DNA from: Mobula hypostoma
Taxonomy: Eukaryota
Reading direction: 5' to 3'
Assembly (NCBI RefSeq): GCF_963921235.1
Contig: NC_086108.1
Span: 27,964,001 to 28,028,000 of the forward strand
DNA: 64,000 nt
Part shown: piece after piece, positions 4,676-31,416 of the stretch
How the letters are laid out: every line of letters begins with the position of its first letter
How positions within the stretch are numbered: the first letter of the stretch is position 1
The notes under the pieces: generated by a model
Database searches by the model: none
Seen by the model: the letters and a program-made list of their open reading frames with translations, nothing else
Told to the model about the DNA's origin: nothing
Made by a program: the position numbers and the translations under genes

Positions 4676-7600
4676 TATATTGGAATGGTTGGGGGGTGGG
4701 AATCAAATTAAAGAGGCTAGGTGTGGGAGGTTAGTTCACAACAGAGGGATGGGAACCAGTGCAGAGAGACAGAGGGGTGTAAAGTGAGCGTAGAAGCAAA
4801 AAGTACAAAGGGGAAAAGTAAAAGTGGCAGGCCGACAAATCCAGGGCAAGCATTAAAAAGGGCTAAGAGAGTTGTAAAAGAGCGCCTGAAGGCTTTATGT
4901 GTCAATGCAAGGAGCATTCGTAATAAGGTGGATGAATTGAAAGTGCAGATTGTTATTAATGATTATGATATAGTTGGGATCACAGAGACATGGCTCCAGG
5001 GTGACCAGGGATGGGAGCTCAACATTCAGGGATATTCAATATTCAGGAGGGATAGACATGAAGGAAGGGGAGGTGGGGTGGCGTTGCTGGTTAAAAAAGA
5101 GATTAACGCAATAGAAAGGAAGGACATAAGCCGGGAAGATGTGGAATCGATATGGGTAGAGCTGCATAACACTAAGGGGCAGAAGACGCTGGTGGGAGTT
5201 GTGTACAGGCCACCTAACAGTAGTAGTGAGGTCGGAGATGGTACTAAACAGGAAATTAGAAATGTGAGCAATAAAGGAACAGCAGTTATAATGGGTGACT
5301 TCAATCTACATGTAGACTGGGTGAACCAAATTGGTAAAGGTGCTGAGGAAGAGGATTTCTTGGAATGTATGCGGGATGGTTTTTTGAACCAACATGTCAA
5401 GGAACCGACTAGAGAGCAGGCTATTCTGGACTGGGTTTTGAGCAATGAGGAAGGGTTAATTAGCGATCTTGTCGTGAGAGGCCCCTTGGGTAAGAGTGAC
5501 CATAATATGGTGGAATTCTTCATTAAGATGGAGAGTGACATAGTTAATTCAGAAACAAAGGTTCTGAACTTAAAGAGGGGTAACTTTGAAGGTATGAGTC
5601 GTGAATTAGCTAAGATAGACTGGCAAATGACACTTAAAGGATTGACGGTGGATATGCAATGGCAGGCATTTAAAGGTTGCATGGATGAACTACAACAATT
5701 GTTCATCCCAGTTTGGCAAAAGAATAAATCAAGGAAGGTAGTGCACCCGTGGCTGACAAGAGAAATTAGGGATAGTATCAATTCCAAAGAAGTAGCATAC
5801 AAATTAGCCAGAGAAAGTGGCTCACCTGAGGACTGGGAGAAATTCAGAGTTCAGCAGAGGAGGACAAAGGGCTTAATTAGGAAGGGGAAAAAAGATTATG
5901 AGAGAAAACTGGCAGAGAACATAAAAACGGACTGTAAAAGCTTTTATAGATATGTAAAAAGGAAAAGACTGATAAAGACAAATGTAGGTCCCCTGCAGAC
6001 AGAAACAGGTGAATTGATTATGGGGAGCAAGGACATGTCAGACCAATTGAATAATTACTTTGGTTCTGTCTTCACTAAGGAGGACATAAATAATCTTCCA
6101 GAAATAGTAAGGGACAGAGGGTCCAGTGAGATGGAGGAACTGAGTGAAATACATGTTAGTAGGGAAGTGGTGTTAGGTAAATTGAAGGGATTGAAGGCAG
6201 ATAAATCCCCAGGGCCAGATGGTCTGCATCCCAGAGTGCTTAAGGAAGTAGCCCAAGAAATAGTGGATGCATTAGTGATAATTTTTCAAAACTCGTTAGA
6301 TTCTGGACTAGTTCCTGAGGATTGGAGGGTGGCTAATGTAACCCCACTTTTTAAAAAAGGAGGGAGAGAGAAACCGGGGAATTATAGGCCGGTTAGCCTA
6401 ACGTCGGTGGTGGGGAAACTGCTGGAGTCAGTTATCAAGGATGTGATAACAGCACATTTGGAAAGCGGTGAAATGATCGGACAAAGTCAGCATGGATTTG
6501 TGAAAGGAAAATCATGTCTGACGAATCTCATAGAATTTTTTGAGGATGTAACTAGTAGAGTGGATAGGGGAGAACCAGTGGAAGTGGTATATTTGGATTT
6601 TCAAAAGGCTTTTGACAAGGTCCCACACAGGAGATTAGTGTGCAAACTTAAAGCACACGGTATTGGGGGTAAGGTATTGGTGTGGGTGGAGAATTGGTTA
6701 GCAGGCAGGAAGCAAAGAGTGGGAATAAACGGGACCTTTTCAGAATGGCAGGCGGTGACTAGTGGGGTACCGCAAGGCTCAGTGCTGGGACCACAGTTGT
6801 TTACAATATATATTAATGACTTGGATGAGGGAATTAAATGCAGCATCTCCAAGTTTGCGGATGACACGAAGCTGGGTGGCAGTGTTAGCAGTGAGGAGGA
6901 TGCTAAGAGGATGCAGGGTGACTTGGATAGGTTGGGTGAGTGGGCAAACTCATGGCAGATGCAATTTAATGTGGATAAATGTGAAGTTATCCACTTTGGT
7001 GGCAAAAATAGGAAAACAGATTATTATCTGAATGGTGGCCGATTAGGAAAAGGGGAGGTGCAACGAGACCTGGGCGTCATTATACACCAGTCATTGAAAG
7101 TGGGCATGCAGGTACAGCAGGCGGTGAAAAAGGCGAACGGTATGCTGGCATTTATAGCGAGAGGATTCGAGTACAGGAGCAGGGAGGTACTACTGCAGTT
7201 GTACAAGGCCTTGGTGAGACCACACCTGGAGTATTGTGTGCAGTTTTGGTCCCCTAATCTGAGGAAAGACATCTTTGCCATAGAGGGAGTACAAAGAAGG
7301 TTCACCAGATTGATTCCTGGGATGGCAGGTCTTTCATATGAAGAAAGACTGGATGAACTGGGCTTGTACTCGTTGGAATTTAGAAGATTGAGGGGGGATC
7401 TGATTGAAACGTATAAGATCCTAAAGGGATTGGACAGGCTAGATGCGGGAAGATTGTTCCCGATGTTGGGGAGGTCCAGAACGAGGGGTCACAGTTTGAG
7501 GATAGAGGGGAAGCCTTTTAGGACCGAGATTAGGAATGAATCTGTGGAATTCTCTGCCACAGCAAACTGTTGAGGCCGGTTCATTGGCTGTGTTTAAGAG

Positions 7601-7761
7601 GAAGTTAGATATGGCCCTTGTGGCTACAGGGGTCAGGGGGTATGGAGGGAAGGCTGGGTTCTGAGTTGGATGATCAGCCATGATCATAATAAATGGCGGT
7701 GCAGGCTCGAAGGGCCGAATGGCCTACTCCTGCACCTATTTTCTATGTTTCTATATTCTAT
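4676..7761 (+). mobile_element. Young CR1 LINE, 5'-truncated (no ORF1), with 3' UTR
   Basis: Long EN+RT ORF; 3' UTR gaagggccgaatggcctactcctgcacct followed by a (ttctatg/a)n tail. Confidence 0.97.
4721..7573 (+). CDS. CR1 ORF2: APE endonuclease + reverse transcriptase (950 aa open; C-terminus frameshifted)
   Basis: NARS, GITETW, GDFN, SDH (APE); KSPGPDG, NYRPVSL, DFQKAFD, GVPQGSVLGP, FADD (RT). The start is GTG, not ATG; a deletion near 7536 removes KNFFTQRVV. Confidence 0.93.
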   Translation: MWEVSSQQRDGNQCRETEGCKVSVEAKSTKGKSKSGRPTNPGQALKRAKRVVKERLKALCVNARSIRNKVDELKVQIVINDYDIVGITETWLQGDQGWELNIQGYSIFRRDRHEGRGGGVALLVKKEINAIERKDISREDVESIWVELHNTKGQKTLVGVVYRPPNSSSEVGDGTKQEIRNVSNKGTAVIMGDFNLHVDWVNQIGKGAEEEDFLECMRDGFLNQHVKEPTREQAILDWVLSNEEGLISDLVVRGPLGKSDHNMVEFFIKMESDIVNSETKVLNLKRGNFEGMSRELAKIDWQMTLKGLTVDMQWQAFKGCMDELQQLFIPVWQKNKSRKVVHPWLTREIRDSINSKEVAYKLARESGSPEDWEKFRVQQRRTKGLIRKGKKDYERKLAENIKTDCKSFYRYVKRKRLIKTNVGPLQTETGELIMGSKDMSDQLNNYFGSVFTKEDINNLPEIVRDRGSSEMEELSEIHVSREVVLGKLKGLKADKSPGPDGLHPRVLKEVAQEIVDALVIIFQNSLDSGLVPEDWRVANVTPLFKKGGREKPGNYRPVSLTSVVGKLLESVIKDVITAHLESGEMIGQSQHGFVKGKSCLTNLIEFFEDVTSRVDRGEPVEVVYLDFQKAFDKVPHRRLVCKLKAHGIGGKVLVWVENWLAGRKQRVGINGTFSEWQAVTSGVPQGSVLGPQLFTIYINDLDEGIKCSISKFADDTKLGGSVSSEEDAKRMQGDLDRLGEWANSWQMQFNVDKCEVIHFGGKNRKTDYYLNGGRLGKGEVQRDLGVIIHQSLKVGMQVQQAVKKANGMLAFIARGFEYRSREVLLQLYKALVRPHLEYCVQFWSPNLRKDIFAIEGVQRRFTRLIPGMAGLSYEERLDELGLYSLEFRRLRGDLIETYKILKGLDRLDAGRLFPMLGRSRTRGHSLRIEGKPFRTEIRNESVEFSATANC

Positions 7762-8204: not shown

Positions 8205-11200
8205 TGTGGCGATGTCACGTGCAATGATGTGTCGGTACATGGTTGGACAGAGCACAGAGCTTGCGCGGGATTACCAGAATGTTCCAGCATGTGGCTGGGT
8301 TAAGACGTGTTTGTTTATTACTGTAAATAAAAGTTCTCTAATACTTCCAGAATATGATTCTTTACTGTTAACCCACGGTACGTTTAAACAGAAGTAACAT
8401 AACATGGTGTCAGAACTGGTTCTGGAAGAATAATATGGGAGAATCGAAGATAATCGAAAAAAGAGAAGAAGAAAAAAGTTCGAACTGTAAACAGTAAAAT
8501 GGAATGTTTACAACCCCCACCAAAACTTCAGCTGACTGGCAAAGTAGATGAGAATTGGAGGATATTCAAGCAACAGTTTGAACTGTACTTAAAGGCGATC
8601 GATTATGAAGAAAAATCAGAAAAAACCAAAGCTGCGCTTTTGATCCATGTAATCAGGAATGATGCAGTAGAGTTATATATTAATTTTGCCTTTGAAGATG
8701 GAGATAATTTCAATTTAAAATCGATAATGACAGATTTGGAGTATTTTGTATACCTAAGCAGAATTTAACTTACGAGCGATATAAATTCTTCACATGTGCA
8801 CAGAGACGCTGAAACTATTGATCAGTATGTTACTGAGTTAAGAAAGCGTAGTAGAACATGCAAGTTTGGATTGCTCACGGACTCTCTCATTAAAGATAGA
8901 CTTGTTTGTGGCATTTGAGATAATGCTCTGAGAGAAAGGCTGTTGAGAGAGCAAGATTTAAATTTTGAAAAAGCTTTGGCATTTTGCAAAGCTTCTGAGA
9001 CCATGACATTGCAGGCTGAAGCACTTTTTGTCGAAAACTTCAATGTAAATGCTGTGAAAAAGCACGAATACATCAAGAAATATAATAATACACCAACGAA
9101 ACTGACAGAGAGCAAGATGGCATTGGAACGAAAAAAGTTATATGATTGCTGTGCGCGGGAACATCGCCCAAATCAGTGTCCCGCATGTGGTAAAATTTGT
9201 AATGGCTGCGGTAAAATTAGTCATTTTTCACGCTGTTGTAAAAGCAGAAAGAAGGAAAATAAAATGAAACAAGTAAATGCTGTGTTTGAAAATGAACATG
9301 AAGAATTTTACATAGATGTGCTTTGTGAAAATAAACCAAGTAACAATGACTGGACTATTCTGTTGCAAGTGTTTCAAAACAATATTCTGTTTAAACCTGA
9401 TACTGGAGCGCAAGTAAATGTTCTTGCAGAATTTGAGTTTAATGCTTTCAAGCCAAGACCGAAGTTACATCAGACAAATAAAAAGTGACTGGGTATTCAG
9501 GTGCAGACATTCCAGTTAAAGAAACATGCTTGGCAAAGGTATCACACAAAAATATTGTGCACACACTTTCATTTGTGGTCCTGCCAAAAAATGTACAGTC
9601 AATTCTGGGTTTATCTGCCTGTGAAAGACTTAATTTGGTGAAAAGAATTTTAGTCCTGGATAGCAACACAAAGTCAGAATACAGTGATTTGATGAAAGAG
9701 TATGAAGACTTGTTTAAAGGGCTTGGTTATCTTCCAGCAGAGCACTCAATTAAAATTGACAATACAGTGCAATCCATAATACATCCACGCAGAAAAGTAC
9801 CTTTTGCATTACGTCATCAACTGAAAACAGAGCTAGATGGAATGGAAAGGCTAGGAGTCATTAAAAAAATGGTGAACCAACTGAACAGGTCAATTCGCTT
9901 GTCATTGTTGATAAGAAAAATGGAAAACTGAGGATTTGTTTAGATCCAAGAGACCTGAATCGGGCCACTAAAAGAGAGCATTTCAAATTGCCTACTCATG
10001 AAGAAATTATGTCACAGTTTGCTAATGCAAAGTATTTTAGTAAATTTGATGCATCCTCCGGATTCTGGCAACTTAAGTTAGATGAACCGAGTTTAAAATT
10101 GTGTACCTTTAACACTGCTGTTGCCTGATACTGTTTTCTTAGGCTTCCTTTGAGAATTGCATCAGCTCCTGAAGTGTACCATAAAACCATTCACATGCTA
10201 TATGAGCACATTGAGGGCATAGATGCATCCATGGATAATATTATTATTTGGGGATCAACTAAACAAGAGCACGATGCCAGGCTCAGACAAGTCTTTGAGG
10301 CAACACGCAAGGCTAACCTGAAATTGAATAAAGACAAATGTCAGCTAGGAGTGACTGAACTTAAATTTGTGGGTGATACCATCAGCAAAGAGGGTGTGCG
10401 TCCTGATCCATCGAAGATTTCTGCTACTGAGAACATGCCAAGACCGCAATGTGAAATGGATGTTCAGAGGTTTATGGGAATGGTTAACTATATGGGAAAA
10501 TTAATACCCAATCTCTCGGAACAGCTTGCTCCATTGAGGTAGCTAACAGAAAAGAGAAATGAATGAAGCTAGAACCATGAACAGGAGAAGGCATGGAAAA
10601 ATCCCAAGAAAGTACTCACAAAAGAACCTGTGTTGAAATTTTATGATGCTGAGAGACCCATCAAAATCTCATGTGGTGCATCTCAATTGGGCTTAGAGGC
10701 CGTATTATTCCAGAAACATGATCAGGAATAGCTACCACTGGCATATGCACCTTGTTCATTATCTGATCCAGAAACAAGGTATGCCCACATTGAAAAAGAA
10801 TTGCTCAGCATTATGTTTGCTTGTGAGAGATTTCATCAGCTTGTGTCAGGGTAATCTATTGATGTTGAAACCGATCATAAGCCGTTGATTGCATTGTTTA
10901 ACAAACTTTTAAGTGGCTGTCCTTTGCGAATTCAGCGAATGATGATCAAATTGCAAAGATATGCACTGAAAGTGTCATACACACCTGGAATTCATGCACA
11001 TGGCTGAGACACGTTCCAGAGCTGTGGATCCAACAACAAAAGACAGTCACAGGAACATTATTGATGTTCAGGTATTCATTGATATGGTCATGGAAACTGT
11101 ACCTGATGCTCCCAAAAAGTTGGAACTGCTGCGTCTGGAAACAGAGAAGGACAAAATTCTCAGTCAGGTAATACAAGTGGTGTTGGATGGATGGCCAGAT

Positions 11201-12622
11201 AATAGGCACCACCGTACCTCAGTAGTACAAGATTATTGGAACCACAGATCAGAACTGTCTGTTATGGGTGCGATTTTTTACAAAGGTAGTAGAATTGTTA
11301 TACCTAAAAGTCTCCGTAAAGAAATTCTTGGTAAAATTCATGAAGGCCACCAAGGCATTGAAAAATATAAGAGAAGGGCATGGGAAGTGATGTTTTGGCC
11401 CAGGGTGAATCAAGAGATTGCAGGATTGGTGTCTTCTTGTCAAATATACCTTAAATACCAACCTAGCAACCCTAAGGAACCACTGCATCCACACCTGAAT
11501 CCTCAGAGACCTTATCAGAAGGTAGGTGTTGATCTTTTTATTAATAACAACAAAGACTATCTATTAATAAATGATTACTATTCATTGTATCCTGAAGTGT
11601 GTTGTCTGGGCAGAACGATTGCAGAAAATGTAATTACATCCATGAAATCATTTTTTTCAAGACATGGTGTACCTGATGAAGTTTTCACAGACAATGGTCC
11701 ACAAATCAGTAGTGAATGCAAGAAACACTTTGCTCGTGAATGGGGCTTTGTTCATACAACATCTAGTCTACTTTTCCCTCAGTCTAATGGATTAGTTGAG
11801 AAATCGGTAGGAATTGTCAAGAAACTGATGCACAAAGCAAAAGATAGTGGAAGTGATTTTTATAAAACCTTGTCAGCCTACCGAAGTACTCCACTTGAAT
11901 GTGGATTTTCGCCTGCTCAGCTCTTGACAGGACGACGTTTGAGATCTAATCTGCCAATGGACGAGAGCCTTCTGAGAACAGAGGAAAGTGAACAAGTGAA
12001 AAGGTGGAAAGATGAACGCAAAGCAGAGCAGAAAATATACTTTGATAGACGTTTTCATCCATTACCTGAACTGCACCAAGGAGATGAAGTAAGAATACAA
12101 GACAAAATGAACACATGGACACAGGAAGTCACAGTACTTGAAGAAGTACAACCCAGATCATACATGGTCTGAACAGAAGAAGGAGCAGTGTTAAGAAGAA
12201 ATCGCAAAGACCTCAAGAAAGAGCCAACTTCAGAGATTCAGTTAATGGATGCAGACGAGACAAAACATGTAAATAGTAACAAGGAAACACAAGATCTGTG
12301 TGCACCACTTAGGAGGTCTACTCATGTTCGTAAACCCTCAGAGAGACTGATAGAGACTTGTTGAATTATGTATTTGCTTTGATTAATGTTTTTAATTGTT
12401 TTTCTTTTTAAGGAAAGGAAGATGTGGTGATATCACTTGCAAAGATGTGCCGGTACATGATTGGACAGAGTACTGAGCATGCGCGGGATTGCCAGAATGT
12501 TCCATCACGTGGCTGGGTTAAGACATGCTTGTTTATTACTGTAAATAAAAGTTCTCTAATTCTTCCAGAATATGATTCTTTACTGTTAACCCATGGTACG
12601 TTTAAACAGAAGTAATGTAACA
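8205..12622 (+). mobile_element. Full-length decayed Ty3/Gypsy LTR retrotransposon (Mag-like)
   Basis: 200-bp TG..CA LTRs at 8205-8404 and 12423-12622, 5-bp TSD ctgtt, PBS tggtgtcagaactgg (8405-8419, tRNA-Leu-like), PPT aaggaaaggaaga before the 3' LTR. Confidence 0.97.
8499..12365 (+). pseudogene. Gypsy gag-pol with stops and frameshifts (gag, Zn knuckle, protease, RT, RNase H, integrase)
   Basis: ENWRIFKQQFELYL; CNGCGKISHFSRCC; DTGAQVNV; ETDHKPL; IHEGHQGIEK; TDNGPQ; PQSNGLVEK; integrase follows RT/RNase H. Confidence 0.95.
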
Positions 12623-15339: not shown

Positions 15340-16745
15340 TGTCATGGTCCGGTCTGTGGACTCAGGCCTCCGGGTCTTCCAGCTGTCCCTTGTTTGAGTT
15401 AATCATTGGCACCTGATTCCCATCTTTGGGCTTGCAATACAAGTAGCCTTGGGATTCAGTGTGGGTTGCTGGTTTGCCTTGTCAGTTCCCCTTGGAGCAA
15501 CCTGTTAATGAAACCATTTGTGATTTCTAGGCCTGGTTGGAGGACCACTGCTTCATGGAGACTTTTTGCCACTTGTAGGAGTAGTCTTTGCGGTATGGAT
15601 ACGGCTGTTTCCTGGGCCAGCTGAGTGGCTACTAGCCACTCCGAGCTAGGTAGGGGTCTGACTGTTTCTGTAGCCTGCTGAGGTTGCTGGCTGAACTGAG
15701 ACTTGGAGCTACCCTGGAGCAGAGATGGAACTGTCTGTTGTTCTTTGGTGTTTGTCTCTTCTTGTCCTCGCCTCTGTGGGGTAAGTCAGGCCGTCTTGCT
15801 GTTGCCCTGCGGGGGGACTTGTCTTGTCTTTGCCTCTGTTGGGTAAGTCTGGCCGTCCTGCCATTATCCACCAGATGGACCTGTCCGACCTTGTTGTGGA
15901 GAAGTTGAGTCCCGGCTTGTCTTAGGATAAGTCCTGGCTCTATGTCTATGTTCTGACCTGTCTCATGTTAGTGTTGTGTTAAAGATGAGTCCTGGCTTGT
16001 CGAAGTATAAGTCCCGGCTCTATATTGATGTTCAGTTCCCAGTCTGTCTCTCAGCTCCAGTCTCTGAGTTATCAGCCTCTAGCCAAGCCTCAAGACCCAA
16101 GACCCCAGCCTCAAGCCAAGCCTCAAGACCCAAGACCCCAGCCTCAAGCCAAGTCTCAAGTCCCAAGACCCCAGCCTCAAGCCAAGTCTCAAGTCCCAAG
16201 ACCCCAGCCTCAAGCCGCCTCAAGACCCGAGACCCCAACCTCAAGCCAAGCCTCAAGACCCTAGACCCCAGCCTCAAGCCAAGCATCAAAACCCTAGATC
16301 CCAGCCTCAAGCCAAGCCTCAAGACCCAAGACCCAGCCTCAAGCCAAGCCTCAAGACCCAAGACCCCAGCCTCAAGCCAAGCCTCAAGACCAAAGACCCC
16401 AGCCTCAAGCCAAGCCTCAAGACCCAAGACCCCAGCCTCAAGCCAAGCCTCAAGACCCTAGACCCCAGCCTCAAGCCATGTCATGTCCTTGCCTGGTTCT
16501 GAGGTCTGAGCCTGAGGCAAGACCCAGGTTCTGGGTCCTTGTCCAGTCTTGGGCTCGGAGTCCAAGCCTTGTCTCCTAGTCCATGGTTTCTAGTCCTGGT
16601 CCTGCTTTCCCTAACCCAAGTCTGCATTCTTGTCCCTGATCCTGGTCTGAATCCTGTCATGTCCCTACTCTAGTCAAGTCCTGTTCCTTGTACTTCAGTG
16701 TCTGTGTCTTGCATTTGGGTCCATTCCCAGCACCACATTGTGACA
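15340..16745 (+). mobile_element. Solo LTR (Gypsy-like) containing a minisatellite
   Basis: tgtca...tgaca inverted termini; flanks ctcca/ttcca (5-bp TSD, 1 mismatch); no coding domains. Confidence 0.7.
16072..16478. repeat. 33-bp minisatellite, ~12 copies
   Basis: Unit ccagcctcaagccaagcctcaagacccaagacc. Confidence 0.95.
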
Positions 16746-18825: not shown

Positions 18826-21356
18826 TGTTATGTTTTGTAATTCCAAAACATAAAACTAATGCAAAGGAAGAGATGAAGAGGCCAAAATGAGAGTCTAACT
18901 TAGGTTTTCCTTTAAGCAAGGCACACGCATATTATGTGATGGTGTGATAATATCCACTATTTACATACTTTTACAGGTACCCACAATGCAGTACGTAAAT
19001 AACAAAGAATGTGTAATTAAACAATATATTTACAATATTACTCAAACATTACTGAAATATTAAATACACAACACTCCTTCCTACTTAGCTATAAACTCCA
19101 ACACAATACAGAGTACATCTCAACTATATACACACTATACTATTTAATACAACAACTATACAGACATCCACAATATATAGTAAATTTTAACTTGTCCCAT
19201 TCAGGCCTAAATATTTAATTGCTGTGCTTTCTTTTTATCCTTGTGTAATAATGTCTTTCCTGACAAGGAGGATCACTCTGCTTAGCAGCTGAGAGTTGAG
19301 GCTGTGAAACAATCTCAGGTTCTGAGGCCTCCTCCATGGTTGTTGACTCTGAGGATGCAGAAAGTGTCTCTGACAGCTCTGGACATCTCCTTTTCTCTAT
19401 GGATCTGCTTCGATCTTTGCTTCTCCGCGCTCCCCCCCCGTCACGACTTTTTTTGCAGTCTTTATCTCGCTTCCGATCCCTTTCTTTTACTTTCTCACTT
19501 ACCCCTCTTTCACAACTTTCTCGTTCTCACTCACAATCTTTTCTCCTTTTCGACTTGTCTTTCTTTTTCTCTCCTTCCCTCCTCTTCTAGTTTCTTGTGA
19601 GTATCCCTGAATTTGCTAATTTCTCAAGAAATTAGGTCAAATTTGTCCTTTTCTATTTGCAGCACAGTTACGGCATTCTCCTCTTTCTTTTCCTTTTTCT
19701 TCTTTCTAGAATGTGCAACTTGTCTTGGGAAGGTGCATTTAGTTCATTGGAGTATTCTCTTATAAATCTTTCTATTGCTCCCGTTACAATCTGGTCTCTC
19801 CTCTTGGTTTCCGCATCCACAATATCATCTGATGAATTCTCTGTTTTCATATCTCTATTGACTCCTTTCTTTTTGACCCTCCATTCATCCATCTGGGCTT
19901 TGGTCTTTGCATCTGCTTTTACAAGAAGCTTTTTGTCTCCCACTTGAAGTTCATGCAATATCCTTAATGCACGCAGAGTAGATTCTGGTTCCTTATACTC
20001 ACAAAAGCCAAACATTTCCTACTTTTCTGAAGCTCCTTGACCTCTCATCCAGCTTAAATTCAAGCCACATTCCGCAAGTATGCCTGATGAACATATCAGA
20101 AGCTTTCTCAGATATGTTGCCAACAAAAAGGTTTGTAGATGTACGACTGCTTACATCACTTTCATGATTCCTTTGAGCAGCATGGTCAAATTAGGTCCAA
20201 ATTGTTTTCCAACCAAGGGCACAAAGGTTGGCAGCAACACCTGTTTGCCTTCTGTTGGGCAACAGTTCATGGCTTCAGCATAGAGACAGTTGGGGTAACA
20301 TCCAGCACCTTTCTTAATTTGCTTTCAACTGACTTTATTGCAGGGGATGGTGAATGGATCTCCAATCAAGTCGTCATTGTCTCAGTCAATCATGACTCCA
20401 TAACACTGGTCCTCATGGTTTTACCACATACAAGCCCCATATGGCTTGTATTTTACTGTTATGAATGTCATTCCCACAGGAGTTATCTTTTCTCCAGTAT
20501 AAGTTCTTAACTGGAGATCTGCAGGTTTTAGTTCAGTATCTTTGAAATGCCTTTCAAACTCATTTCGTTGGAATGACTGAAACGGCTGAGCCAGTGTCCA
20601 ATTCCACTTTAATTAATTTGCCATTCATTTCTGGTGTAAGTTATGTTGCTTGTCTTCTGTTATAGAACTGACAATGCTCAGACATCTTCTTCAATTCAGC
20701 CACATATGCTGAAATGGACTCCCCTTCCTTTTGATTTGTCTTATGAAATCTAACACATTCTGCAATCAGCAATGGTTTCAGTTCTAAATATTCTTGTATT
20801 ACTTTCACAATATTAGCAAATCTCATTTTGGATAGTTTGGTCAGAGCTGGTAAATTTATCTTTTGTATAATCAAATGCATCAGTCCTTCCAATGTAGCCA
20901 ACTATTTCTGCTCTTTTTTCATGATTATTATCACCCGATACTCACTGTTTATAAACCTGTAAATTCTTCCATTTTCTGCCTTTATGTTTACTTAATTGTC
21001 TTTTCTTTTGTGAAGAAAATGTGCTGTGCTTTCTTTCACTCGAACGTCGCGCTACCTTTCAACAGATAGGTAATTGTCTCAGGTTTGTTTAAAAAGTACC
21101 TCGTCGCCATTGTTATGTTTCACAACTCCAAAACATAAACTTAATTTAAAGGAAAAGACTCAGAGTCTAAAGTGCAAGTCTAAGTTAGTTTTTACTTTAA
21201 GCAAGGTGCACACTTATCACGTGGCAGCATGATGTTGTGTGCCATTTACACACTTTTACTGATAAACTGCATGTATTATGTAAACAACAAAGAATGCTTA
21301 ATCAAACAATATACTTACAACATTACTCAGATTTTACTGATATTAAATACACAATA
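18826..21356 (-). mobile_element. Internally deleted Gypsy LTR element carrying host cDNA
   Basis: LTRs 18826-19073 and 21111-21356; TSD ctttc (18821-25, 21357-61); PBS TGGCGACGAGG (21109-21099, tRNA-Ser-like); PPT next to 19073; gag remnant KPLLIAECVRFHKTNQKEGESISAYVAELKK; protease ELDTGSAVSV. Confidence 0.92.
19386..20240 (-). pseudogene. RBM25: Processed (intronless) RBM25 fragment: RRM plus start of the RE/RD-rich region
   Basis: FVGNISEKASDM..FGFCEYKEPESTLRALRILHELQVGDKKLLVKADAKTKAQMDEW..ETKRRDQ..IREYSNELNAPSQ..EISKFRDTHKKLEEE matches vertebrate RBM25 as I recall it; stops and frameshifts present. Confidence 0.93.
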
Positions 21357-22873
21357 CTTTCCAGTCCTAATAAAGGGTCTCGTCCAAAACATTGTCCGTT
21401 TTTCCCTCTCCATAGATGCTGCCTGGCCTGCTGAGCTCCAACATATTGTTTGCGAGCCTCTGTCAAAACCATGCTGAGTCAATTGCACAACAATACCAGT
21501 TTATCCTCTTTTACACTAAATCTGAGATCCCGTGAATTGAATTTTAATGTTATCAGTGGGAAAGTGCCAGGTAAAGAGCATGTAATGCCAGTACTTACTG
21601 AAGCCTACACTCTGAAGAGTTTGTCCTTTTTGATGCTAGGTGATTTAAACTTTTGCAATGTAATGAGTGTTTGCACATTTGGTGGGACCATTTTTAACTG
21701 CCACCCTTTGTCCCTGGATGCCTGTCGTTTCCTAACATGGCAAAGACATGACCTCACCACAGCTGACAATGATGCAGAGGGAAAAGTGAGCGCTGTGTCG
21801 AGGAACGAAGAAATGAACCTCATTACTCTGATGCTTCAAGCATATGCGAGCAAGGTGACCTCTGCATCCACTGCCTACCCTTGCCTGAAATGATTGAATT
21901 AGGGAGTCACAATGCTTTTGCAGTCCCGGTGTGCAATCCATCTCCTGGTTTAACTCCTGCATGTCTGAACATTTCCTTGAAGCAGCCTTCCAATCATGCC
22001 CAGCTTCCTATGTCTAAGGTACACTCTGGGCATGATTGGGGGAAAGGATTGTCACTGTCTGAGGATTTCAAGATATATTGTTAATTCAGTTTTGTGGTCC
22101 AATTTATGCCCTATTTTTTAAACTAGTAAGCAGTCCTCACTAATTAAATGGCTGGACAGAGTTGACTCAGCAATAAACCCAATGCACTCTGCAGGTTTTT
22201 GACTTGAACAACTCAATACAATGCAGTTCTGACTTTTTTACAACTTCCTTGGTTTGCATATTCAAAGCCTTCCAAATTCAATCTCTAGTAAATGGAGGAA
22301 GTGCCAACCCATCATAAAACTGCTATTAGTTTAATTCTCTGTTGCCCAGTTGTCATTTTAGGACTGATTTAGATTATGTAGATAATCTGCATGCAGATAA
22401 TACCAAGTGCGATGTTAAAGCTGTTTTATGCTTTCTGGATAGCATGGTAATAAATCTTTTACATGAGTGTAATAATATAAAATGAGCTCATTGGAAATAA
22501 GTGACTTCAGTAGTGATTCAAATTCCAATTAGTAGGGTGGCAGATAATGGATTCTGTAATTTAGATGTCTGAATATGACTTGATTGGTTCTTCTGTCATC
22601 TCTGTGTTGAAAGGTTGTTGTAGCTCCAAGCCTGCACAGATGCATATGAGTTGGTGCCCCTATAAAGCACAGGAGGAGGCCTGAACTTCCTGAGGGGCTT
22701 GTTTTCAGAAACAATGATGTTCAGGTGAGATTATAGGTAGTAAATTACTGCCCAAGGATACAAGAACAGGACAGGAAAATAGGAACAGTAATAGACTACT
22801 AAATCCCTCTATTAAGAATTAAGAATTGAAAATACACGTGGACTAAGATGTTAACTGTCCTGTGCTATCACCA

Positions 22874-22939
22874 GTGGGATCATCAGTTGATCTGCCACCT
22901 GTCTTCAGGAGTTTCGGCCCGCTTATGATCAAGACTCCC
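22874..22939 (-). ncRNA. Putative permuted hammerhead ribozyme in the Hero 3' UTR
   Basis: GGGAGUC^UUGAUC-AUAAGC-GGGCC-GAAA-CUCCU...GAUCAA-CUGAUGA-UCCCAC: both core boxes, full stems I and III, weak stem II. Confidence 0.6.
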
Positions 22940-24444
22940 TTGAGGTGTTGGGCCAGCAGTGCTAAAGCACCACCTCCCACTGGTGAGCTTAAAAACTTGG
23001 CATCTGCCTCTATCAGAGTTGTTGGTCGCTTCCATCCAACAGATAGTCTACTCTTCAGATGTCTATGCAACTACTGAAGGGTTTGCAAAATACGGATACA
23101 CTGTCGGACTATCTGCCCCTTTGGACATACTTGGTCCACACCCATGCTGATTCTGTCTTTGCTGCCCTGCTGGGTGACTTTATCTCTCTTCTAGTGAAGC
23201 CAAGGTCACGCAGCCACTTCTGGGATGTGAACACAATAAACCCACGGCAGCCTACTTCGAATGGATGGCATGAGACCTTCCACCCTCGGTCTCTGCATTC
23301 TGATCTTAATTCTGCATACTTGGTTAACTTGTGCTCATGGGCTTCATCAATATTGTCTTCCCAGGGGACTGTGAGTTCACCAATAACCACTTCTCTGCTG
23401 GTGTCAGACCATACGATTATATCTGGACACAATGTTGTGAAAGCTATTTGCTCCGGGAAACTGCCTTTCCCATTCAAGTCGGCCTTGACACACTGATCAT
23501 TGTCTGAAGAAAGTTTACTTGATCATGAGCCTGCGCTGTACACCCTTGACTTGGAGCCTTCTTTCACAAATAATATGCGATGTTCTGTGCAGCATGGGGC
23601 ATGAGATAAGTTGTGCTACAGTACTCTCTGCTCAACCGCTTCTGTTACAACTTTGAGAATGTTGTTATGTCTCCAAGTGTACATGCCGCTGGAAAGATTG
23701 ACTCTGCATGCACTCAAAATATGTTGAAGTGTTCCCTTCTCGCCACAAGCAGCACACCTGTCTGTCTTATCTTTATACCGGGTGCTGAGGTTGGCAGGTG
23801 TTGGGAGCAGATCGTACGCTGCTCTGCATAGAAAAGAGATGCGGAGCAGTTCCATCTGCCACAGAACATTCCAAGATAGATGTCATTGTTCAACACTTTC
23901 CCACCAGGTCCAAGCCCCTTGTTTGGCCAGGCCAGCTGTTTTAGATAACCTCTTCTCCTTTTCTACCTCTCGTATTTCTTGCATTACAAGCTCACAGCGC
24001 TCCTTACCTGTAGAAGATGACCATCACTTGTGGGTTGTCCATCCAAGTCCCCGGCAGCCTAGCTGGATAGCCCCAACCATCTCCTTGTGCTTCAATTTAG
24101 ACTCTGCCTCATCAACTGCTACATGGGCTGACCTCTTCCTGCCTGATCTCACATCTGGCTGGGTGTTCTTGATGACAGGGTCTTTTGAGTCTCAAAGCAT
24201 CAAGAATGATCTTACCTTGGCTACCTTGACCTCTTCAACAAGGGATTGCACTGGGATGGTAAGCTTTGTCTGGCTATTGTGGGTTGCAACATTGGTGAGG
24301 CTGCTCAGTACTCCAAGCCACTTCTTCACATACTTGTTGATCTTCCGTTCCATTGCCTCAACATGGGACATTGCCACTTCATAGACAGTTAGTGGCCACA
24401 TTATCCGTGGCATCAGTCCGTACTGCAAGCACCACAACTTCAAC

Positions 24445-27199
24445 TATTGAAAGGACAGACTGATGGGCAGAGGGGTTGGGGTGGCTCTGTTGGTGAGGGA
24501 TAAATATTCAGTCCCTTCCAAGGGGGGACATAGAATCAGGAGACGTAGAGTCAGTATGGATAGAACTGAGAAACTCTAAGGGTAGAAAGACCCTAAAGGG
24601 AGTTATCTACAGGCCCCCAAACAGTAGTCTGGATGTAGGGTGCAAGTTGAATCAAGAGTTAAAATTGGCATGTCACAAAGGTAATGCTACAGTTGTTATG
24701 AAGGATTTCAATATGCAGGTAGAATAGAAGAATCAGGTTGGTACTGGACCCCAAGAAGGGGAGTTTGTGAAGTCGTTCCGAGATGGATTCTTAGAACAGC
24801 TTGTACTGGAGCCTACCAGAGAGTAGGCAATTCTAGATTTAGTGGGGCGCAATGAACCAAATTTGATCAGGGACCTCGAGGTAAAGGAGCCATTAGGAGG
24901 TAGTGACCATAATATGATAAGTTTTAATCTACAAATTGAGAGGGAGAAGGGAAAATCGGAAGTGTCACTATTACAGTTGAACAAAGGGAACTATGGAGCT
25001 ATGAGGGAGGAGCTGGCCAAAGTTCAATGGAACAATACCCTAGCAGGGATGACAGTGGAACAACAATGGCAGGTATTTCTGGGAATAATGCAAAAGGTGC
25101 AGGATCAGTTCATTCCAAAGAGGAAGAAAGATCCGAATGGGAGTAAGGGGAGGTTGTGGCTGACAAGGGAAGTAATGGACAGTATAAAAATAAAAGAGAA
25201 GAAGTATAACACAGCAAAGACGAGTGGGAAGCCGGAGGATTGGGAAACTTTTAAAGAGCAACAGAAGGTAACTAAAAAGGCAATACACGGAGAAGAAAAT
25301 GAGGTACGAAGGTAAATTAGCCAAGAATATAAAGGAGGATAGTAAAAGCTTCTTTAGGTATGTGAAAAGGAAAAAAATAGTTAAGACCAAAACAGGGCCC
25401 TTGAAGACAGAAACAGGTGAATTTATTATGGGGAACAAGGAAATGGCAGATGAGTTGAACAGATACTTTGGACCTGTCTTCACGAGGGAAGACACAAACA
25501 ATCTCCCAGATATAATAGTGGCCAAAGGACCTAAGGTAATGGATGAACTGAAGAAAATTTATATTAAGCAGGAAATGGTGATGGATGGGCTGTTGGGTCT
25601 GAAGGCTGATAAGTCCCCGGGACCTGATGGTCTGCATCTCAGGGTATTTAATGAGGTGGCTTTAGAAATCGTGGACACATCTGTGATCATTTTCCAACGT
25701 TCTATAGATTCAGGATCAGTTTCTGTGGATTGGAGGAGGGTGGCTAATGTTGTCCCTCTCTTCAAGAAAGGAGGGAGAGAGAAAACAGGGAATTATAGAC
25801 CGGTTAGCCTGATGTCGATGGTGGGAAAGATGCTGGAGTCAATTATAAAAGATGAAATTACAACACATTTGGATAACAGTAACAGGACTGGTCTGAATCA
25901 GCATGGATTTACAAAAGGGAAATCGTGCTTGACTAATCTTCTGGAATTTTTTGAGGATGTAACTATGAAAATGGACAAGGGAGAGTCAGTGGATGTAGTG
26001 TACCTGGACTTTCAGAAAGCCTTTGATAAAGTTCCACATAGGAGATTAGTGGTCAAAATTAGGGCACATGTTATTGGGGGCAGAGTACCGACATGGATTG
26101 AAAATTGGCTGGCTGAACAGGAAACAAAGAGTAGTGATTAACGGGTCCCTTTGGGAATAGCAGGCAGTGACCAGTGGGGTACTGCAGGGTTCAGTGCTGG
26201 GACCGCAGCTGTTTACAATATATATTAATGATTTAGATGAAGGGATTAAAAGTAACATTAGCAAATTTGCAGATGACACAAAGCTGGGTGGCAGTGTGAA
26301 ATGTGAGGAAGATGTTATGAGAATGCAGGGTGACTTGGACAGGCTGGGTGAGTGGGCGGATGCAAGGCAGATGCAGTTTAATGTGGATAAATGTGAGGCT
26401 ATCCACTTTGGTGGTAGAACAGGAAGGCAGATTATTATCTAAATGGTGTCAAGTTAGGAAAAGGAGAAGTACAACGAGATCTAGGTGTTCTTGTACATCA
26501 GTCACTGAAAGCAAGCATGCAGGTACAGCAGGCTGTGAAGAAAGCTAATGGCATGTTGGCCTTCATAACAAGGGGAATTGAGTATAGGAGCAAAGAGGTC
26601 CTTCTGCAGCTGTACAGGGCCCTGATGAGACCACACCTGGAGTACTGTGTGCAGTTTTGGTCTCCAAATTTGAGGAAGGACATTCTTGCTATTGAGGGAG
26701 TGCAGCGTAGGTTCACAAGGTTAATTCCCGGGATGGTGGGACTGTCATATGTTGAAAGATTGGAGCGACTGGGCTTGTATACTCTGGAATTTAGAAGGCT
26801 GAGAGGGGATCTTATTGAAACATATAAGATTATTAAGGGATTGGACAAGCTGGAGGCAGGAAGTATGTTCCCACTGATGGGTGAGTCCAGAAGCAGAGGC
26901 CACAGTTTAAGAATAAGGGGTAGGCCATTTAGAACGGAGCTAAGGAAAAACTTTTTCACCCAGAGTGGTGGATAAGTGGAATGCTCTGCCCCAGAAGACA
27001 GTGGAGGCCAAGTCTCTGGATGCTTTCAAGAAAGAGATGGCTAGAGCTCTTAAAGATAGCAGAACCAAAGGTTATGGGGATAAGGCAGGAACTGGATACT
27101 GATTGTGGATGATCAGCCATGATCACAGTGAATGGCAGTGCTGGCTGGAAGGGCCGAATGGCCTACTCCTGCACCTATTGTTTATTGTCTATTGTCTAT
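24445..27199 (+). mobile_element. CR1 LINE truncated within the APE domain, frameshifted, nested in Hero
   Basis: ORF pieces 24842-25315, 25299-26141, 26167-26442 and 26517-26975 are homologous to 4721-7573; (ctattgt)n tail; the Hero frame GLPG/KLWCLQ is joined across it. Confidence 0.96.
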
Positions 27200-28525
27200 T
27201 GCCAGGCAAGCCACACTTGTCAACAGACATCAGACCTCTGCTGATCTGTTCTCCTGTCTCTTTAACCCTCTTGGTGTCTCTCAGCTCCTCTGTGTAACAT
27301 CGCCTAGGGCTCTTAACTGGTTGGTCCTGAATGGATGGAATCTCCTCTCCACAAAGGGTGAAATGAAAGTCAACCAGCTTTCCTCTCCTAAGAACAAGGC
27401 TCCTTGACTTCTTGAACTTGAACTTCATTCTTCCCCAATCCATTAGCTCCTCAAGTGTCGATAGTACATTTTCCACTGCCTCCGTGCTAGGACCTAAAAG
27501 GGTGAGATCGTCCATGAACGCTCGTATTGGTGGTAACTCCCATCCGCCATCAAGTGCGACACCTGGTCCCACTGATTCTGCAGCCCTCACAATGTCCTCC
27601 ATGGCTAACACAAAAAGGATGGGTGAAATCGCACATCCCATTTGGATTCCAACATCCAAGCTCTGCCACCTGGTTGTAAACTACTGAGTGGAAAACCTCA
27701 TCCGGAAATCGTTGCAGTACTGCATAGCAAAGTTCCTTACCTTAGCAGGAATCCATAGGAATTCCATTGCAAACTCAATCAGGGCATGGGGAGCAGAACC
27801 ATGCGCATTTGCAAGATCAAACCAAGCTACAGTCAGATTTCTTCTCAACCTTTTCAACTCCTGGATGGTATGCCATATCATACTAGTATGTTCAAGGCAG
27901 CCTGGGAAGCCTGGTACTCCTGCCTTCTGCACAGATGTATTTACCAATCCATTCTCTATCACAAATGAAGATATTCTTTCTGCTAGAATGCCAAACATAA
28001 TCTTCCCCTCTACATTCAGGAGTGAAATGGGTCAGAACTGATTCAATGTCGTAGAATTCTCTTCCTTCGGGATGTATTCTCCTTCAGCCTCACTCCAAGA
28101 CAAAGGAACAACACCTTGTCTCCACACCACCTTTACAATCTCCACAAGTATTTCCTCAGCTCTTCACACTTCTTGAACACCTTATACGGCACTCCATTAG
28201 GTCCTGGCACTGAGCCTGACCTTGCCTTTCCGATTATGATCATGGCTGATCTGCCTCAGATAAAACATAGAAGATTGAACATTCCAGCACAGGAGCAGGG
28301 CCTTTGGCCGATGATTTTCTGCTGAACTAATTAGCCCGAGCGAAAAGATATCAGCTGTAGAGCAGCATACTTTTCTTTTATTCCAGCTCTCCATTGTCCT
28401 CAGTTCCACGATTTTTCAAAGAGGTCAATTTCCTTTTTAAATTCCCTCAGTGATCTAGAATTCCAGAAGTTCACCGCTCTGAAAGGAAATTCCCAATGTA
28501 CCTTTGTTTTATTGACTACAATATC

Positions 28526-29342
28526 CTTCACCTACTTGGGCAGCATACTCTCTCGCGCAGTGAACATAGACGCTGAGGTCAACAATAGGATTGCCAAAGC
28601 CAGCACCGCCTTTGGGAGACTCCGTGAGAACGTCTGGGAGCAGAGAGGACTCAGCCTTACCACCAAGCTGAAGGTCTCCTGTGCAGTGGTCCTTACCACC
28701 CTCCTTTACGCCAGCGAGACCTGGACTGTCTACAGCAGACACTCCAAACAGCTCAACCACTTTCACCTGAGCTGTCTCCGCAGACTCCTCCACATCAGGT
28801 GGCAGGACAAAGTCCCTGACACGGAAATCCTGGAACGAGCTGGGCTCTGCAGCGTCTACACCCTCCTGCTGAAAGCCCAAGCCAGGTGGGCTGGACATGT
28901 GGTCAGAATGCCAGACAGCCAATTGCCTAAGCAGCTGCTGGACAGAGAACTGTGTCAGGGCAAGCGCTCAGTCGGGGGGGGCAGAAGAAACGTTACAAAG
29001 ATTGCCTCAAAGCGTCCCTCAAAGGCCTGGGTGTCGACATTAACACGTGGGAGACGCTTGCCCTCAACCGTCCAGCTTGGCGCAGCAAGATCACCACAGG
29101 AGCCCGTGCAGCTGAAGTCAGGCGCATCATCGAGGCGCAACGAAAGCGTGCTGTGCGCAAGGCCCGAGCAGCATCCACTGCCACGACAGCACCCACGCAC
29201 TTGTGTCCCACATGTGGGTGAGCCTTCAGGGCCCAGATTGGCCTCATCAGTCACCTCCGGACCCACAGCCACCAATCTCATATTTGACTTTGAAGCCATG
29301 GTCATCTTCGACTACGAAGGACGAACAACAACAACAACAACA
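28526..29342 (+). mobile_element. RTE LINE 3' fragment
   Basis: FTYLGSIL..RIAKASTAFGRL..LLYASETW..RWAGHVVRM; frameshift in the G-run near 28975; C2H2 CPTCG..ISHLRTH; (caa)n tail. Confidence 0.93.
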
Positions 29343-29466
29343 CTGTCCTTACTTACTTGAGACTATCTGTCCAAAGGAGACATCTCAACATTCACACCAT
29401 CCTTCCCCTTACTTATATGCTTCGGAAAGATCACGTTCTTTCATCTAAACTCCAAAGTAAACAGGT

Positions 29467-29473
<7 letters not shown>

Positions 29474-29513
<40 letters not shown>

Positions 29514-29542
29514 TTCTCTCTCTCTCTTTTTCTCTCTCTCTC
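29474..29542. repeat. (CT)n microsatellite, imperfect
   Basis: Direct reading. Confidence 0.95.
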
Positions 29543-29819
29543 AACACTTCTGTGCTCTGCAGTTGTTGTTCATCCCTGATAACTAATGCTGTAACTCTGA
29601 TAATCTGCCTTCTGCTTCCAGGAAATCCCACCGATATTTTTATGACTCTCAGCATGTGTCATTAGCTCTGTAAAACACAAGTGCTTACCTTTCCAATGTT
29701 CTTGTCAAGTGGTCTGATTATGTGTGGTATTCCTTTCGATTCTCTGCATTCGCTTCATGAAGCCAGGTAGAATTCTTTTTCTACACTACTTCCTTGTTAT
29801 CCACTGACATAATACTGAT

Positions 29820-31416
29820 GCTATGGGCACCCGTATGGGTCGTAGCTATGCCTGCCTTTTGTGGAACAATATATGTTCCGTGCCTATTCTGGTATCTGTC
29901 CCCCACTTTTCCTTTGCTACATCGACGACTGCATTGGCGCTGCTTCCTGCACGCATGCAGAGCTTGTTGACTTTATTAACTTTGCCTCCAACTTTCACCC
30001 TGCCCTCAAGCTTACCTGGTCCATTTCTGACACCTCCCTCCCCTTTCTACATCTTTATGGCTCTGTCTCTGGAGACAGCTTATCCACTGATGTCTACTAT
30101 AAGCCTACTGACTCTCACAGCTATCTGGACTAGTCCTCTTCTCACCCTGTCTCTTGCGAAAATGCCATCCCCTTCTCGCAATTCCTCCGTCTCCACTGCA
30201 TCTGCTCTCAGGATGAGGCTTTTCATTCCAGGACGAGGGAGATGTCCTCCTTTTTTAAAGAGATGGGCCTCCCTTCCTCCACCATCAACTCTGCTCTCAA
30301 ACGCATCTCCCCCATTTCACGCACATCTGCTCTCACTCCATCCTCCTACCACCCCACTAGCAATAGGGTTCCCCTGGTCCTCACCTACCACCCCACCAGC
30401 CTCCGGGTCCAACATATTATTCTCCGTAACTTCCGCCACCTCCAACAGGATCCCACCACTAAGCACATCTTTCCCTCCCCCCCCCCACTTCTTTTCGCAG
30501 GGATCGCTCCCTACACGGCTCCCTTGTCCGTTCGTCCCCCAGATCCCTCCCCACTGATCTCCCTCCTGGCACTTATCCTTGTAAGCGGAACAAGTGCTAC
30601 ATATGCCTTTACACTTCCTCCCTTACCACCATTCAGGGGCCCCAGACAGTCCTTCCAGGTGAGGCAACACTTCACCTGTGAGTCGTCTGGGGTGATATAC
30701 TACGTCCGGTGCTCCCAATGTGGCCTTCTATATATTGGCTAGACCTGACACAGACTGGGAGATCGTTTTGCTGAACACATACGCTCTGTCCGCCAGAGAA
30801 AGCAGGATCTCCCAGTGGCCACACATTTTAATTCCACATCCCATTCCCATTCTGACATGTCTATCCACGGCCTTCTCTACTGTAAAGATGAAGCCACACT
30901 CAGGTTGGAGGAACAACACCTTATATTCCGTCTGGGTAGCCTCCAACCTGATGGCATGAACATTGACTTCTCTAACTTCCCCTAATGCCCCACCTCCCCC
31001 TCGTACCCCATCCATTATTTATTTTTATACACACATTCTTTCTCTCACTCTCCTTTTTCTCCCTCTGTCCCTCTGATTATACCCCTTGCCCATCCTCTGG
31101 TGTCCCCCCCTTGTCTTTCTCCCAGGCCTCCTGTCCCATGATCCTCTCATATCCCCTTTTCCCCTTTGCCAATCAACTGTCCAGCTCTTGGCTCCATCCC
31201 TCCCCCTCCTGTCTTCTCCTTCATTTTGGATCTCCCCCTCCCCCTCCCACTTTCAAATCTCTTACTAACTTTTCCTTCAGTTAGTCCTGACGAAGGGTCT
31301 CGGCCTGAAACGTTGACTGTACCTCTTCCTAGAGATGCTGCCTGGCCTGCTGCGTTCACCAGCAACTTTGATGTGTGTTGCTTGAATTTCCAGAATCTGC
31401 AGAATTCCTGTTGTTG
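29820..31416 (+). mobile_element. Penelope-like element, 5'-truncated (RT C-half, GIY-YIG endonuclease, terminal repeat)
   Basis: AMGTRMG..YIDD..VYYKPTDSHSYLD; VIYYVRCSQCGLLYIG..RLGDRFAEH; ends QPDGMNIDFSNFP* near 30985; hammerhead in the tail. Confidence 0.93.
31283..31318 (+). ncRNA. Minimal type I hammerhead ribozyme of the Penelope terminal repeat
   Basis: AGTC-CTGACGA-AGGgtctcggCCT-GAAACGTT-GACT; stem III is only the ACGT palindrome. Confidence 0.8.

Follow-up and report, generated by a model that had tools for sequence, protein, structure and literature searches.

A predicted hammerhead core of split topology in the 3' UTR of likely Hero retrotransposons, and its possible part in replication via circular RNA

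On the minus strand of a 64,000-nucleotide stretch of the Mobula hypostoma genome, here called the window, the 3' UTR of a likely Hero retrotransposon carries a hammerhead core which, judged by comparison of divergent relatives, is almost certainly a real and conserved structure. The core very probably cleaves itself after H17. It appears to be a hammerhead variant in a new setting, in which a known S-G-C block order is combined with split wiring and a HERO context that are new. We lean slightly towards the reading that an entire clade of autonomous R2-like LINEs uses covalently closed circular RNA for its replication, made by a hammerhead of undescribed topology—a split catalytic block, a four-way junction and a kink-turn, with interlocked ends that would favour circularisation—and that each jump restores the repeats at the ends of its copies through rolling-circle target-primed reverse transcription.

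The motif lies 180–240 nt past the stop codon, within the element's 3' UTR, and its core runs in the order cut site, GAAA, CUGAUGA. The motif letters that a preliminary description had read on the minus strand are all as it gave them, and its stems III (22939–22934 with 22912–22907) and I (22932–22927 with 22892–22887) are present. The order NUH-GAAA-CUGAUGA was likewise confirmed: a pattern specific to it (cut site-GAAA-CUGAnGA, with a minimum of 5 bp in stems I and III) matches once in the window, at this motif, and never in 60 locally shuffled windows. Rfam gave no hammerhead match at E values up to 10 in 20000–30000; the odd wiring accounts for the motif having been missed by hammerhead searches. 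Block S (22927–22939) holds the stem III strand (22939–22934), C17 (22933) and the stem I strand (22932–22927), and the predicted cut site falls between 22933 and 22932. Block G (22907–22920) consists of the stem II 3' strand (22920–22916), GAAA (22915–22912) and the stem III 3' strand (22912–22907). The stem I 3' strand (22892–22887) and the CUGAUGA box (22886–22880) then follow at 22880–22892. The interval originally assigned, 22874–22939, contains this core, but the whole motif reaches beyond it, from 22986 to 22868.

What did not hold was the proposed stem II, a short CCC/GGG helix. In 32 relatives its two registers were paired in 45–46% of cells compared with 39–43% after shuffling; in a shifted register the covariation score did beat the shuffles (1/500), with slid controls equal on cells paired. 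Since the strand after CUGAUGA pairs at chance level with the GGG before GAAA, A9 is not followed by G10.1. Instead, stem II is formed by 22954–22950 with 22920–22916 (93%), while the strand after CUGAUGA pairs with 22986–22975 (80%).

The layout was parsed from the window copy and 48 strict loci, representing 38 non-redundant families at <85% identity. Its 5' part comprises the helix A strand, hairpin H1, the strands of stem II, helix C and stem III, UH and the stem I strand; its 3' part comprises a linker, the stem II strand, GAAA, the strands of stem III, helix C and stem I, CUGAnGA and the second helix A strand. In the window copy, helix A closes the entire domain with 12 bp between its 5' strand (22975–22986) and its 3' strand (22868–22879), the latter immediately after A9. 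Hairpin H1 (22955–22974) lies between helix A and G10.1 (22954), the first residue of the stem II 5' strand (22950–22954). The 5' strand of helix C (22943–22948) pairs with 22900–22895 and extends stem III; position 22948 is C in 95 of 99 repeats and A in the window copy. In most families helix C begins 0–2 nt after the stem II strand and ends 0–3 nt before the stem I strand, and 1–8 nt link stem I to stem II. A9 therefore runs into helix A and G10.1 follows H1 upstream, rather than the two being joined directly or through 1–2 bases as in a hammerhead; helices A and H1 are inserted between them with almost no unpaired bases, an arrangement from which we infer a four-way junction. Of the two foldings once offered for the core, a pseudoknot in cis or a dimer in trans, the former stands in the shape of a predicted multi-pseudoknot and the latter is needless.

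Covariation was measured on an unsupervised alignment (A2) of 32 sequences. The six helices (A, H1, II, C, III and I) are paired in 85.1% of 1196 cells, compared with 58.0% after shuffling and 32–46% in slid controls, the last comparison being biased in favour of the structure because this was taken from the aligned sequences themselves; double changes on both sides are seen in 36 of 39 pairs. Concern over circularity is lessened by two further results. Among 16 independent nearest pairs, 117 double changes were counted, of which 104 preserve pairing. The three helices outside the covariance model (II, C and III) were moreover found in 8 of 11 loci parsed afterwards, the remaining three loci having no anchors for the parser. 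All five searched helices exceed shuffles in the 38 families (z 10–21). Taken singly, helix A is paired in 80% of cells, with double changes in 10 of 10 counted pairs, hairpin H1 in 84% (7 of 7) and helix C in 76% (5 of 6); stems I, II and III reach 97%, 93% and 88%, with double changes in 14 of their 16 pairs. Covariation, which the preliminary description had named as a check, is thus found in stems I and III and fails for the CCC/GGG stem II. Single-sequence folding, a method blind to pseudoknots, recovers helices A, H1 and II (z −2.3).

Between stem III and helix C, 28 of the 38 families have a 3-nt bulge and then GA opposite GA, and with any other bulge length the pattern occurs in no more than 5 of 38. 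This combination, set between two helices, is what we take to be the kink-turn consensus. In the window, the predicted kink-turn is made up of a non-bulged strand (22940–22942) and, within 22895–22906, the bulge (22906–22904) and GA (22903–22902), after which comes the helix C 3' strand (22900–22895). The non-bulged strand carries GA in 84 of 99 repeats and AA in the window copy, one G having been lost. As predicted, the kink-turn caps stem III and would turn helix C back in the direction of stems I and II; the pattern also suggests protein binding. Separately, a 6-base palindrome is present at the H1 loop in 23 of the 38 families (L074, L084, L085, L117, L121, L136, L139 and others), a count that is too high because the families are related. 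UGAUCA is commonest, and UGGCCA, UCAUGA and GACGUC also occur. Loop–loop dimers are possible where it is present; the window's family lacks it.

Relatives were gathered by using an alignment of 27 endonuclease regions to fetch the best 80 of 298 metagenome loci, which are 39–74% identical to the query. Conservation of the core boxes in other copies had been named as a check and was borne out. Of 66 divergent relatives that could be scored, 61 have the motif in their 3' UTR: the strict core pattern found it at 48 loci and the covariance model at 13 more, several of them decayed. Five relatives lack it, and 14 further loci end too early and were hence left out of the 66. Motif loci among the metagenome relatives include L125 (3918–4039), L075 (1921–2043) and L138 (438–560), which are examples of families with the motif 660–1570 nt past the ORF; L138 has one motif copy upstream of the endonuclease region. 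Viral contigs held no real endonuclease homologue, with 1 weak match. Pattern scans returned 31 matches in viral contigs and, among those listed of >120, 80 loci in prokaryote contigs; of 100 loci from the two scans scored by the model only L272 and L283 were strong, and 11 listed loci were scored by the layout parser only. Both motifs (L272 986–1117, minus strand; L283 961–1070, plus strand) lie on contigs filed as bacterial gut assemblies. The L272 motif adjoins telomere-like repeats, and no element ORF was seen nearby; both contigs may be host DNA in gut assemblies.

The residues preserved in these families are those expected of catalysis. In alignment A2, GAAA is invariant and the CUGAnGA and NUH boxes likewise have invariant columns. 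U16.1 is found in all 38 families, and H17 is C in 14, A in 12, U in 12 and G in none. G10.1 is kept in 35 of 38 and position 11.1 is a pyrimidine in 38 of 38; the closing pair G10.1-C11.1 is G-C in 25 sequences, G-U in 4 and something else in 3 (n=32). The tertiary pair between positions 3 and 8 is C-G in 50 sequences, U-A in 2, U-G in 2 and broken in 1 (n=55). The U3-A8 swap occurs in two related loci, L082 and L101, and is described as a known covariation of natural hammerheads (PMC3088659; PMC4209133). L082/L101 and L065/L066 form a sub-lineage with a U3-A8 or U3-G8 core.

The host element is a 5'-truncated, decayed copy of an RLE-type non-LTR retrotransposon (22822–28252, minus strand), collinear with relatives over 28252–27198 and 24443–23112 (tblastn) and split at about 24444–27198 by another LINE. 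This second element, presumably CR1-like, is itself decayed, lies on the plus strand in the opposite direction to the Hero-like copy and is 76% like an element at 5916–7761. The C-terminal region of the ORF (P0001; 23112–23477, minus strand, stop codon 23111–23109) carries a motif which we take to be a restriction-like endonuclease (RLE), with a zf-RVT zinc knuckle just upstream in the same ORF. The element shares with HERO a single ORF with RT, zinc knuckle and C-terminal RLE, and also non-specific targeting, in that its dispersed copies have unrelated flanks. HERO has been described as the one mostly non-target-specific RLE clade, unlike CRE, R2, R4 and NeSL (PMC4640811). The solved structures closest to the element's protein are R2 proteins; homologues of the RLE region in named hosts come from brittle star, lancelet and anchovy records. 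Placement of the motif in the 3' UTR of an RLE element stands, and the label Hero is likely, from domain order, structural likeness to R2, non-specific targets and elimination. The family's 3' end, or tail, is at 22822–22835 (minus strand), its unit length is about 3.85 kb, and the genome holds at least 1561–1712 candidate copies. Elsewhere in the window are a 950-aa open frame with endonuclease and RT domains (4721–7573, plus strand), belonging to a young LINE, a 400-aa open frame with integrase domains (10970–12172, plus strand), a piece of an LTR retroelement, and a tandem repeat array at 16073–16482 with several offset self-matches of 90–95% identity.

Dispersed copies of the element have their 3' end about 110 nt downstream of the predicted cut, with scattered 5' ends, and none of 30 loci chosen by a 3' fragment starts at the cut site. 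The site is spanned by 99 distinct repeats; in this sample, biased to close matches, indels next to it affect at most 3 of the 99 at any neighbouring position, and no bases are added. As copies both run about 110 nt past the cut and span it, cutting cannot simply make the end of the integrated RNA, and the idea that the ribozyme processes Hero RNA ends is not upheld in that form.

The element's 5' start is reached by 6 of 29 long copies, each of which goes on upstream with 3' UTR sequence. With the 5' UTR as query, 146 candidates were obtained; the best 30, when fetched, all cross one precise junction at which the same tail abuts the 5' UTR. The 3' UTR sequence beyond it measures from 15 to about 1700 nt, and no copy starts at the junction itself. 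In 14 of these 30 long copies the whole motif is duplicated, giving the repeat at both ends that marks circularised retroelements and placing the upstream ribozyme about 110 nt before the 5' UTR. None of the 30 has its 5' end within 10 nt of the cut site (14 stop short and 16 pass); with no pile-up there, the 5' ends offer no direct footprint of cutting. All samples from this genome are the best 30 of 146–1712 candidates per search, not random draws. The head-to-tail junction is also found in 13 of 47 divergent loci, and one whole contig has overlapping ends that are 90% identical. L140 and L121, on one 9.1-kb contig, are two Hero-like families head to tail, and form either a real mixed array or an assembly chimera; because two families are joined there, metagenome junctions may include assembly chimeras. 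Four redundant copies (L213, L217, L222 and L225) have large internal deletions with both ends kept, and are possibly non-autonomous circles. The 5' UTR of distant families starts with several imperfect 20–25-nt repeats (CAGTGAC ... GGAAAGAC) kept across hosts, seen downstream of the motif in L082, L084, L117, L137, L139 and L140, and in L163 at about 310–420. A promoter, translation or RT-binding element is possible.

The two ends of one copy are alike by descent. Tail variants, in classes assigned by eye, agree between both ends in 20 of 23 copies, where 9.6 would be expected (0 of 100000 permutations), and disagree in 3 of 23. Across 14 copies, 65 minority alleles are common to both ends, compared with 16.1 expected with other copies, and the private shared alleles lie on both sides of the cut site. 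Inside the motif, leaving aside L219, shared alleles are confined to linkers, wobble positions and the distal part of helix A. By overall identity, ranked without L213 and L217 (overlapping windows) and L218, a copy's own end came first in 6 of 14 copies and was not among the closest in 5 of 14 (ranks 8–18). Private variants common to both ends are what a circular template, with its single 3' UTR, would yield, and would not arise from a linear RNA with two independent repeats.

Further traces are left by priming and truncation. The 3' ends of dispersed copies run at least 1 base past the junction in 43 of 64 cases, which fits either internal priming or T-rich targets. Truncations rise about five-fold from 300 nt before the junction to 350 nt after it: 12 of 18 fall in the last 300 nt of the first lap and 14 of 30 in the next 116 nt, with no step in frequency at the cut site. 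No target-site duplication, which would have marked a single insertion event, was found in 23 redundant copies outside one minisatellite, which produced a match in L210 that was rejected. In copy L219 (G000:C55, about 41.117–41.123 Mb) both ends lack 17 nt centred on the predicted cut site, the deletion showing 2-nt microhomology, and both have A in place of G12; besides the deletion, two core-region changes are common to its repeats. L209 is deleted at the cut site too. L219 may be the scar of a molecule that was cut, trimmed, joined and copied twice, but it may also reflect gene conversion or redundancy passed on without cleavage; if the deletion and G12A were both inherited, its redundancy came from a dead ribozyme. 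Contigs of 4 sequencing runs have higher depth over the 3' half and near-zero depth over the 5' UTR, but such contigs show neither RNA ends nor levels, and this observation was left out of the argument.

These patterns are consistent with a cycle of three steps: two ribozyme cuts in a terminally redundant transcript, ligation of the resulting ends into a circle, and reverse transcription that goes round this circle more than once. We lean towards this cycle as a whole; its central element, circular RNA as the template, is probable. Transcription would begin upstream of a copy that duplicates the whole ribozyme, and both ribozymes of the redundant transcript would cut after H17. Since helices A, II, C and III cross the cut, the two ends of the unit RNA could re-pair through them (about 28–30 bp), to be joined by the ribozyme itself or by an RtcB-type ligase of the host, yielding a unit-length circle of about 3.85 kb. 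The element's RT would then prime internally at the tail, cross the sealed site some 110 nt further on, and in some cases exceed one lap, thereby renewing the terminal redundancy. Mutual stacking of helices A and H1 is possible if they form a four-way junction at A9/G10.1; together with the kink-turn bending helix C back, this would let the core tolerate its odd wiring. One point against the cycle is the size of the insertion, as two helices far exceed the one extra base that a viroid hammerhead is reported to tolerate at A9/G10.1 (PMC3705267).

Other accounts of the same copies differ in whether the ribozyme cuts and what is then copied. R2-type RTs are able to jump or transfer strands, and the ribozyme might cut and leave the RNA as a nicked circle or a base-paired linear molecule, across which the RT jumps the nick or transfers strands; we consider this unlikely, though deserving some weight. 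The base pairs that would hold the two products together, the rise in truncations around the junction and the deletions at the site in L219 and L209 all suit it, as does the weak self-ligation (1–3%) reported for retrozyme hammerheads (PMC7229834). Against it stand the rarity of indels near the site and the absence of added bases there, in a sample biased to close matches. A linear two-repeat template would also give no identity between the two ends downstream of the cut, where tails and private variants do agree. It is distinctly unlikely that the fold does not cut at all but acts as a scaffold to which the RT protein binds, comparable to the structured R2 3' UTR, with redundancy arising by back-splicing, by tandem read-through plus gene conversion or by other ligation. 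Copies longer than 116 nt were all made from RNA continuous at the cut site, L219 has lethal lesions at both ends, and the kink-turn pattern hints at a bound protein, as a scaffold would have it; but in a scaffold nothing would favour the retention of G8, G12 and a non-G H17, or a compensatory 3-8 swap, and shared alleles within the motif, L219 excepted, avoid all but linkers, wobbles and distal helix A.

The cut might also serve as a limiter or switch of expression, only the uncut fraction being copied, either by destroying read-through host transcripts that contain old copies or by opening cap-independent translation downstream. Self-cleavage in a viral UTR has been reported to promote cap-independent translation (PMC13725137), and the position of the upstream ribozyme before the 5' UTR in redundant copies would suit such a role. 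As a full explanation this is improbable, as it leaves both the private variants common to the two ends and the lack of a fixed 5' end unexplained; as an additional function it can be compatible with the proposed circle cycle. Hardly credible is a fold wired as ordinary type SGC, its short stem II coming after CUGAUGA, or else a dimer, with the cut serving to trim the RNA end. The block order is the same as in type SGC and the window copy has a few chance pairs, but 29 of 32 sequences do not pair in register after A9, the parser score is below shuffled (z −2.1), and copies do not end at the cut site.

LINEs are taken to use linear RNA. If it cleaves, the motif would represent a non-circularly permuted hammerhead in animal genomes, and would break the published premise of an indivisible CUGAnGA block (PMC10085705). 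The element would be a concrete case of an idea raised for Penelope in 2014, that of an autonomous retrotransposon copied from a ribozyme-made circle. Dozens of natural variants of the motif make testing and structure solution easy, and other element classes may hide similar motifs. RT priming inside a circular RNA and a 4-kb circularising module would be relevant to gene-insertion tools and circular-RNA production.

The arrangement of the core had been put forward as new, but its S-G-C order is already published, with cleavage, as type SGC, known from HRIMA-1 and a variant (Eckert et al. 2023, PMC10085705). Five type-SGC RNAs cleaved in vitro and required a fourth helix; in that account they come from metatranscriptomes only, with none in genomes of known organisms, and a single bacterial type-GCS candidate is the sole genomic non-circular permutation (PMC10085705). 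Type SGC and the element motif share the order of cut site, GAAA and CUGAnGA, and a fourth helix (the 'I' helix of type SGC, to which helix C is the analogue) that joins the far ends of stems I and II. The linker between these stems is typically 3 nt in type SGC, compared with 1–8 nt in the element (PMC10085705). The authors of that paper assume that CUGAnGA and its stem II strand are inseparable, and in type SGC stem II directly follows CUGAUGA within an unbroken block C; in the element motif the block is split, with the stem II strand upstream and helices A and H1 at A9/G10.1 (PMC10085705). The element motif also has a kink-turn pattern between stem III and the fourth helix, whereas the word 'kink' has no match in the supplement of PMC10085705. 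The PK hammerhead resembles the motif in having a pseudoknot helix as stem II but, as described in its report, is without the S-G-C order (Zhan et al. 2024, PMC11300833); so is the CChMVd plus hammerhead as described, whose A9/G10.1 insertion is one base, not two helices (PMC3705267). For HERO, the literature searched, mainly listings and abstract beginnings, with Repbase Reports and most subscription papers outside its scope, held no hammerhead, split topology or head-to-tail structure, and PMC7650587 only lists HERO names. In short, the element motif has the S-G-C order with a short linker and a helix that connects stems I and II at their distal sides, and departs from type SGC in lacking an unbroken block C of stem I strand, CUGAnGA and stem II strand.

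In R2 and RTE-type LINEs, one 5' HDV-like ribozyme frees a linear RNA from the host transcript and gives it a fixed 5' end. Their ribozyme is at the 5' end, whereas that of the element is in the 3' UTR and leaves no fixed 5' end. Penelope-like elements, in which ribozyme repeats flank the RT ORF, offer a closer likeness, and cutting, ligation to a circle and reverse transcription beyond unit length were tentatively proposed for them (Cervera and de la Pena 2014, PMC4209133). Their hammerheads are of type I and often minimal or dimeric, whereas the element motif is monomeric and knotted, and they encode a telomerase-like RT with a GIY-YIG nuclease, whereas the element is an R2-like RLE LINE (PMC4209133). 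Metazoan retrozymes, for which a cycle of this kind has support, share the proposed steps of cutting, ligation, circular RNA and tandem copies (Cervera and de la Pena 2020, PMC7229834), and RtcB has been reported to ligate them in vitro far better than the ribozyme does (PMC7229834). Retrozymes are non-autonomous, 170–400 nt long and carry type I hammerheads, whereas the element described here is autonomous and about 3.85 kb in length (PMC7229834).
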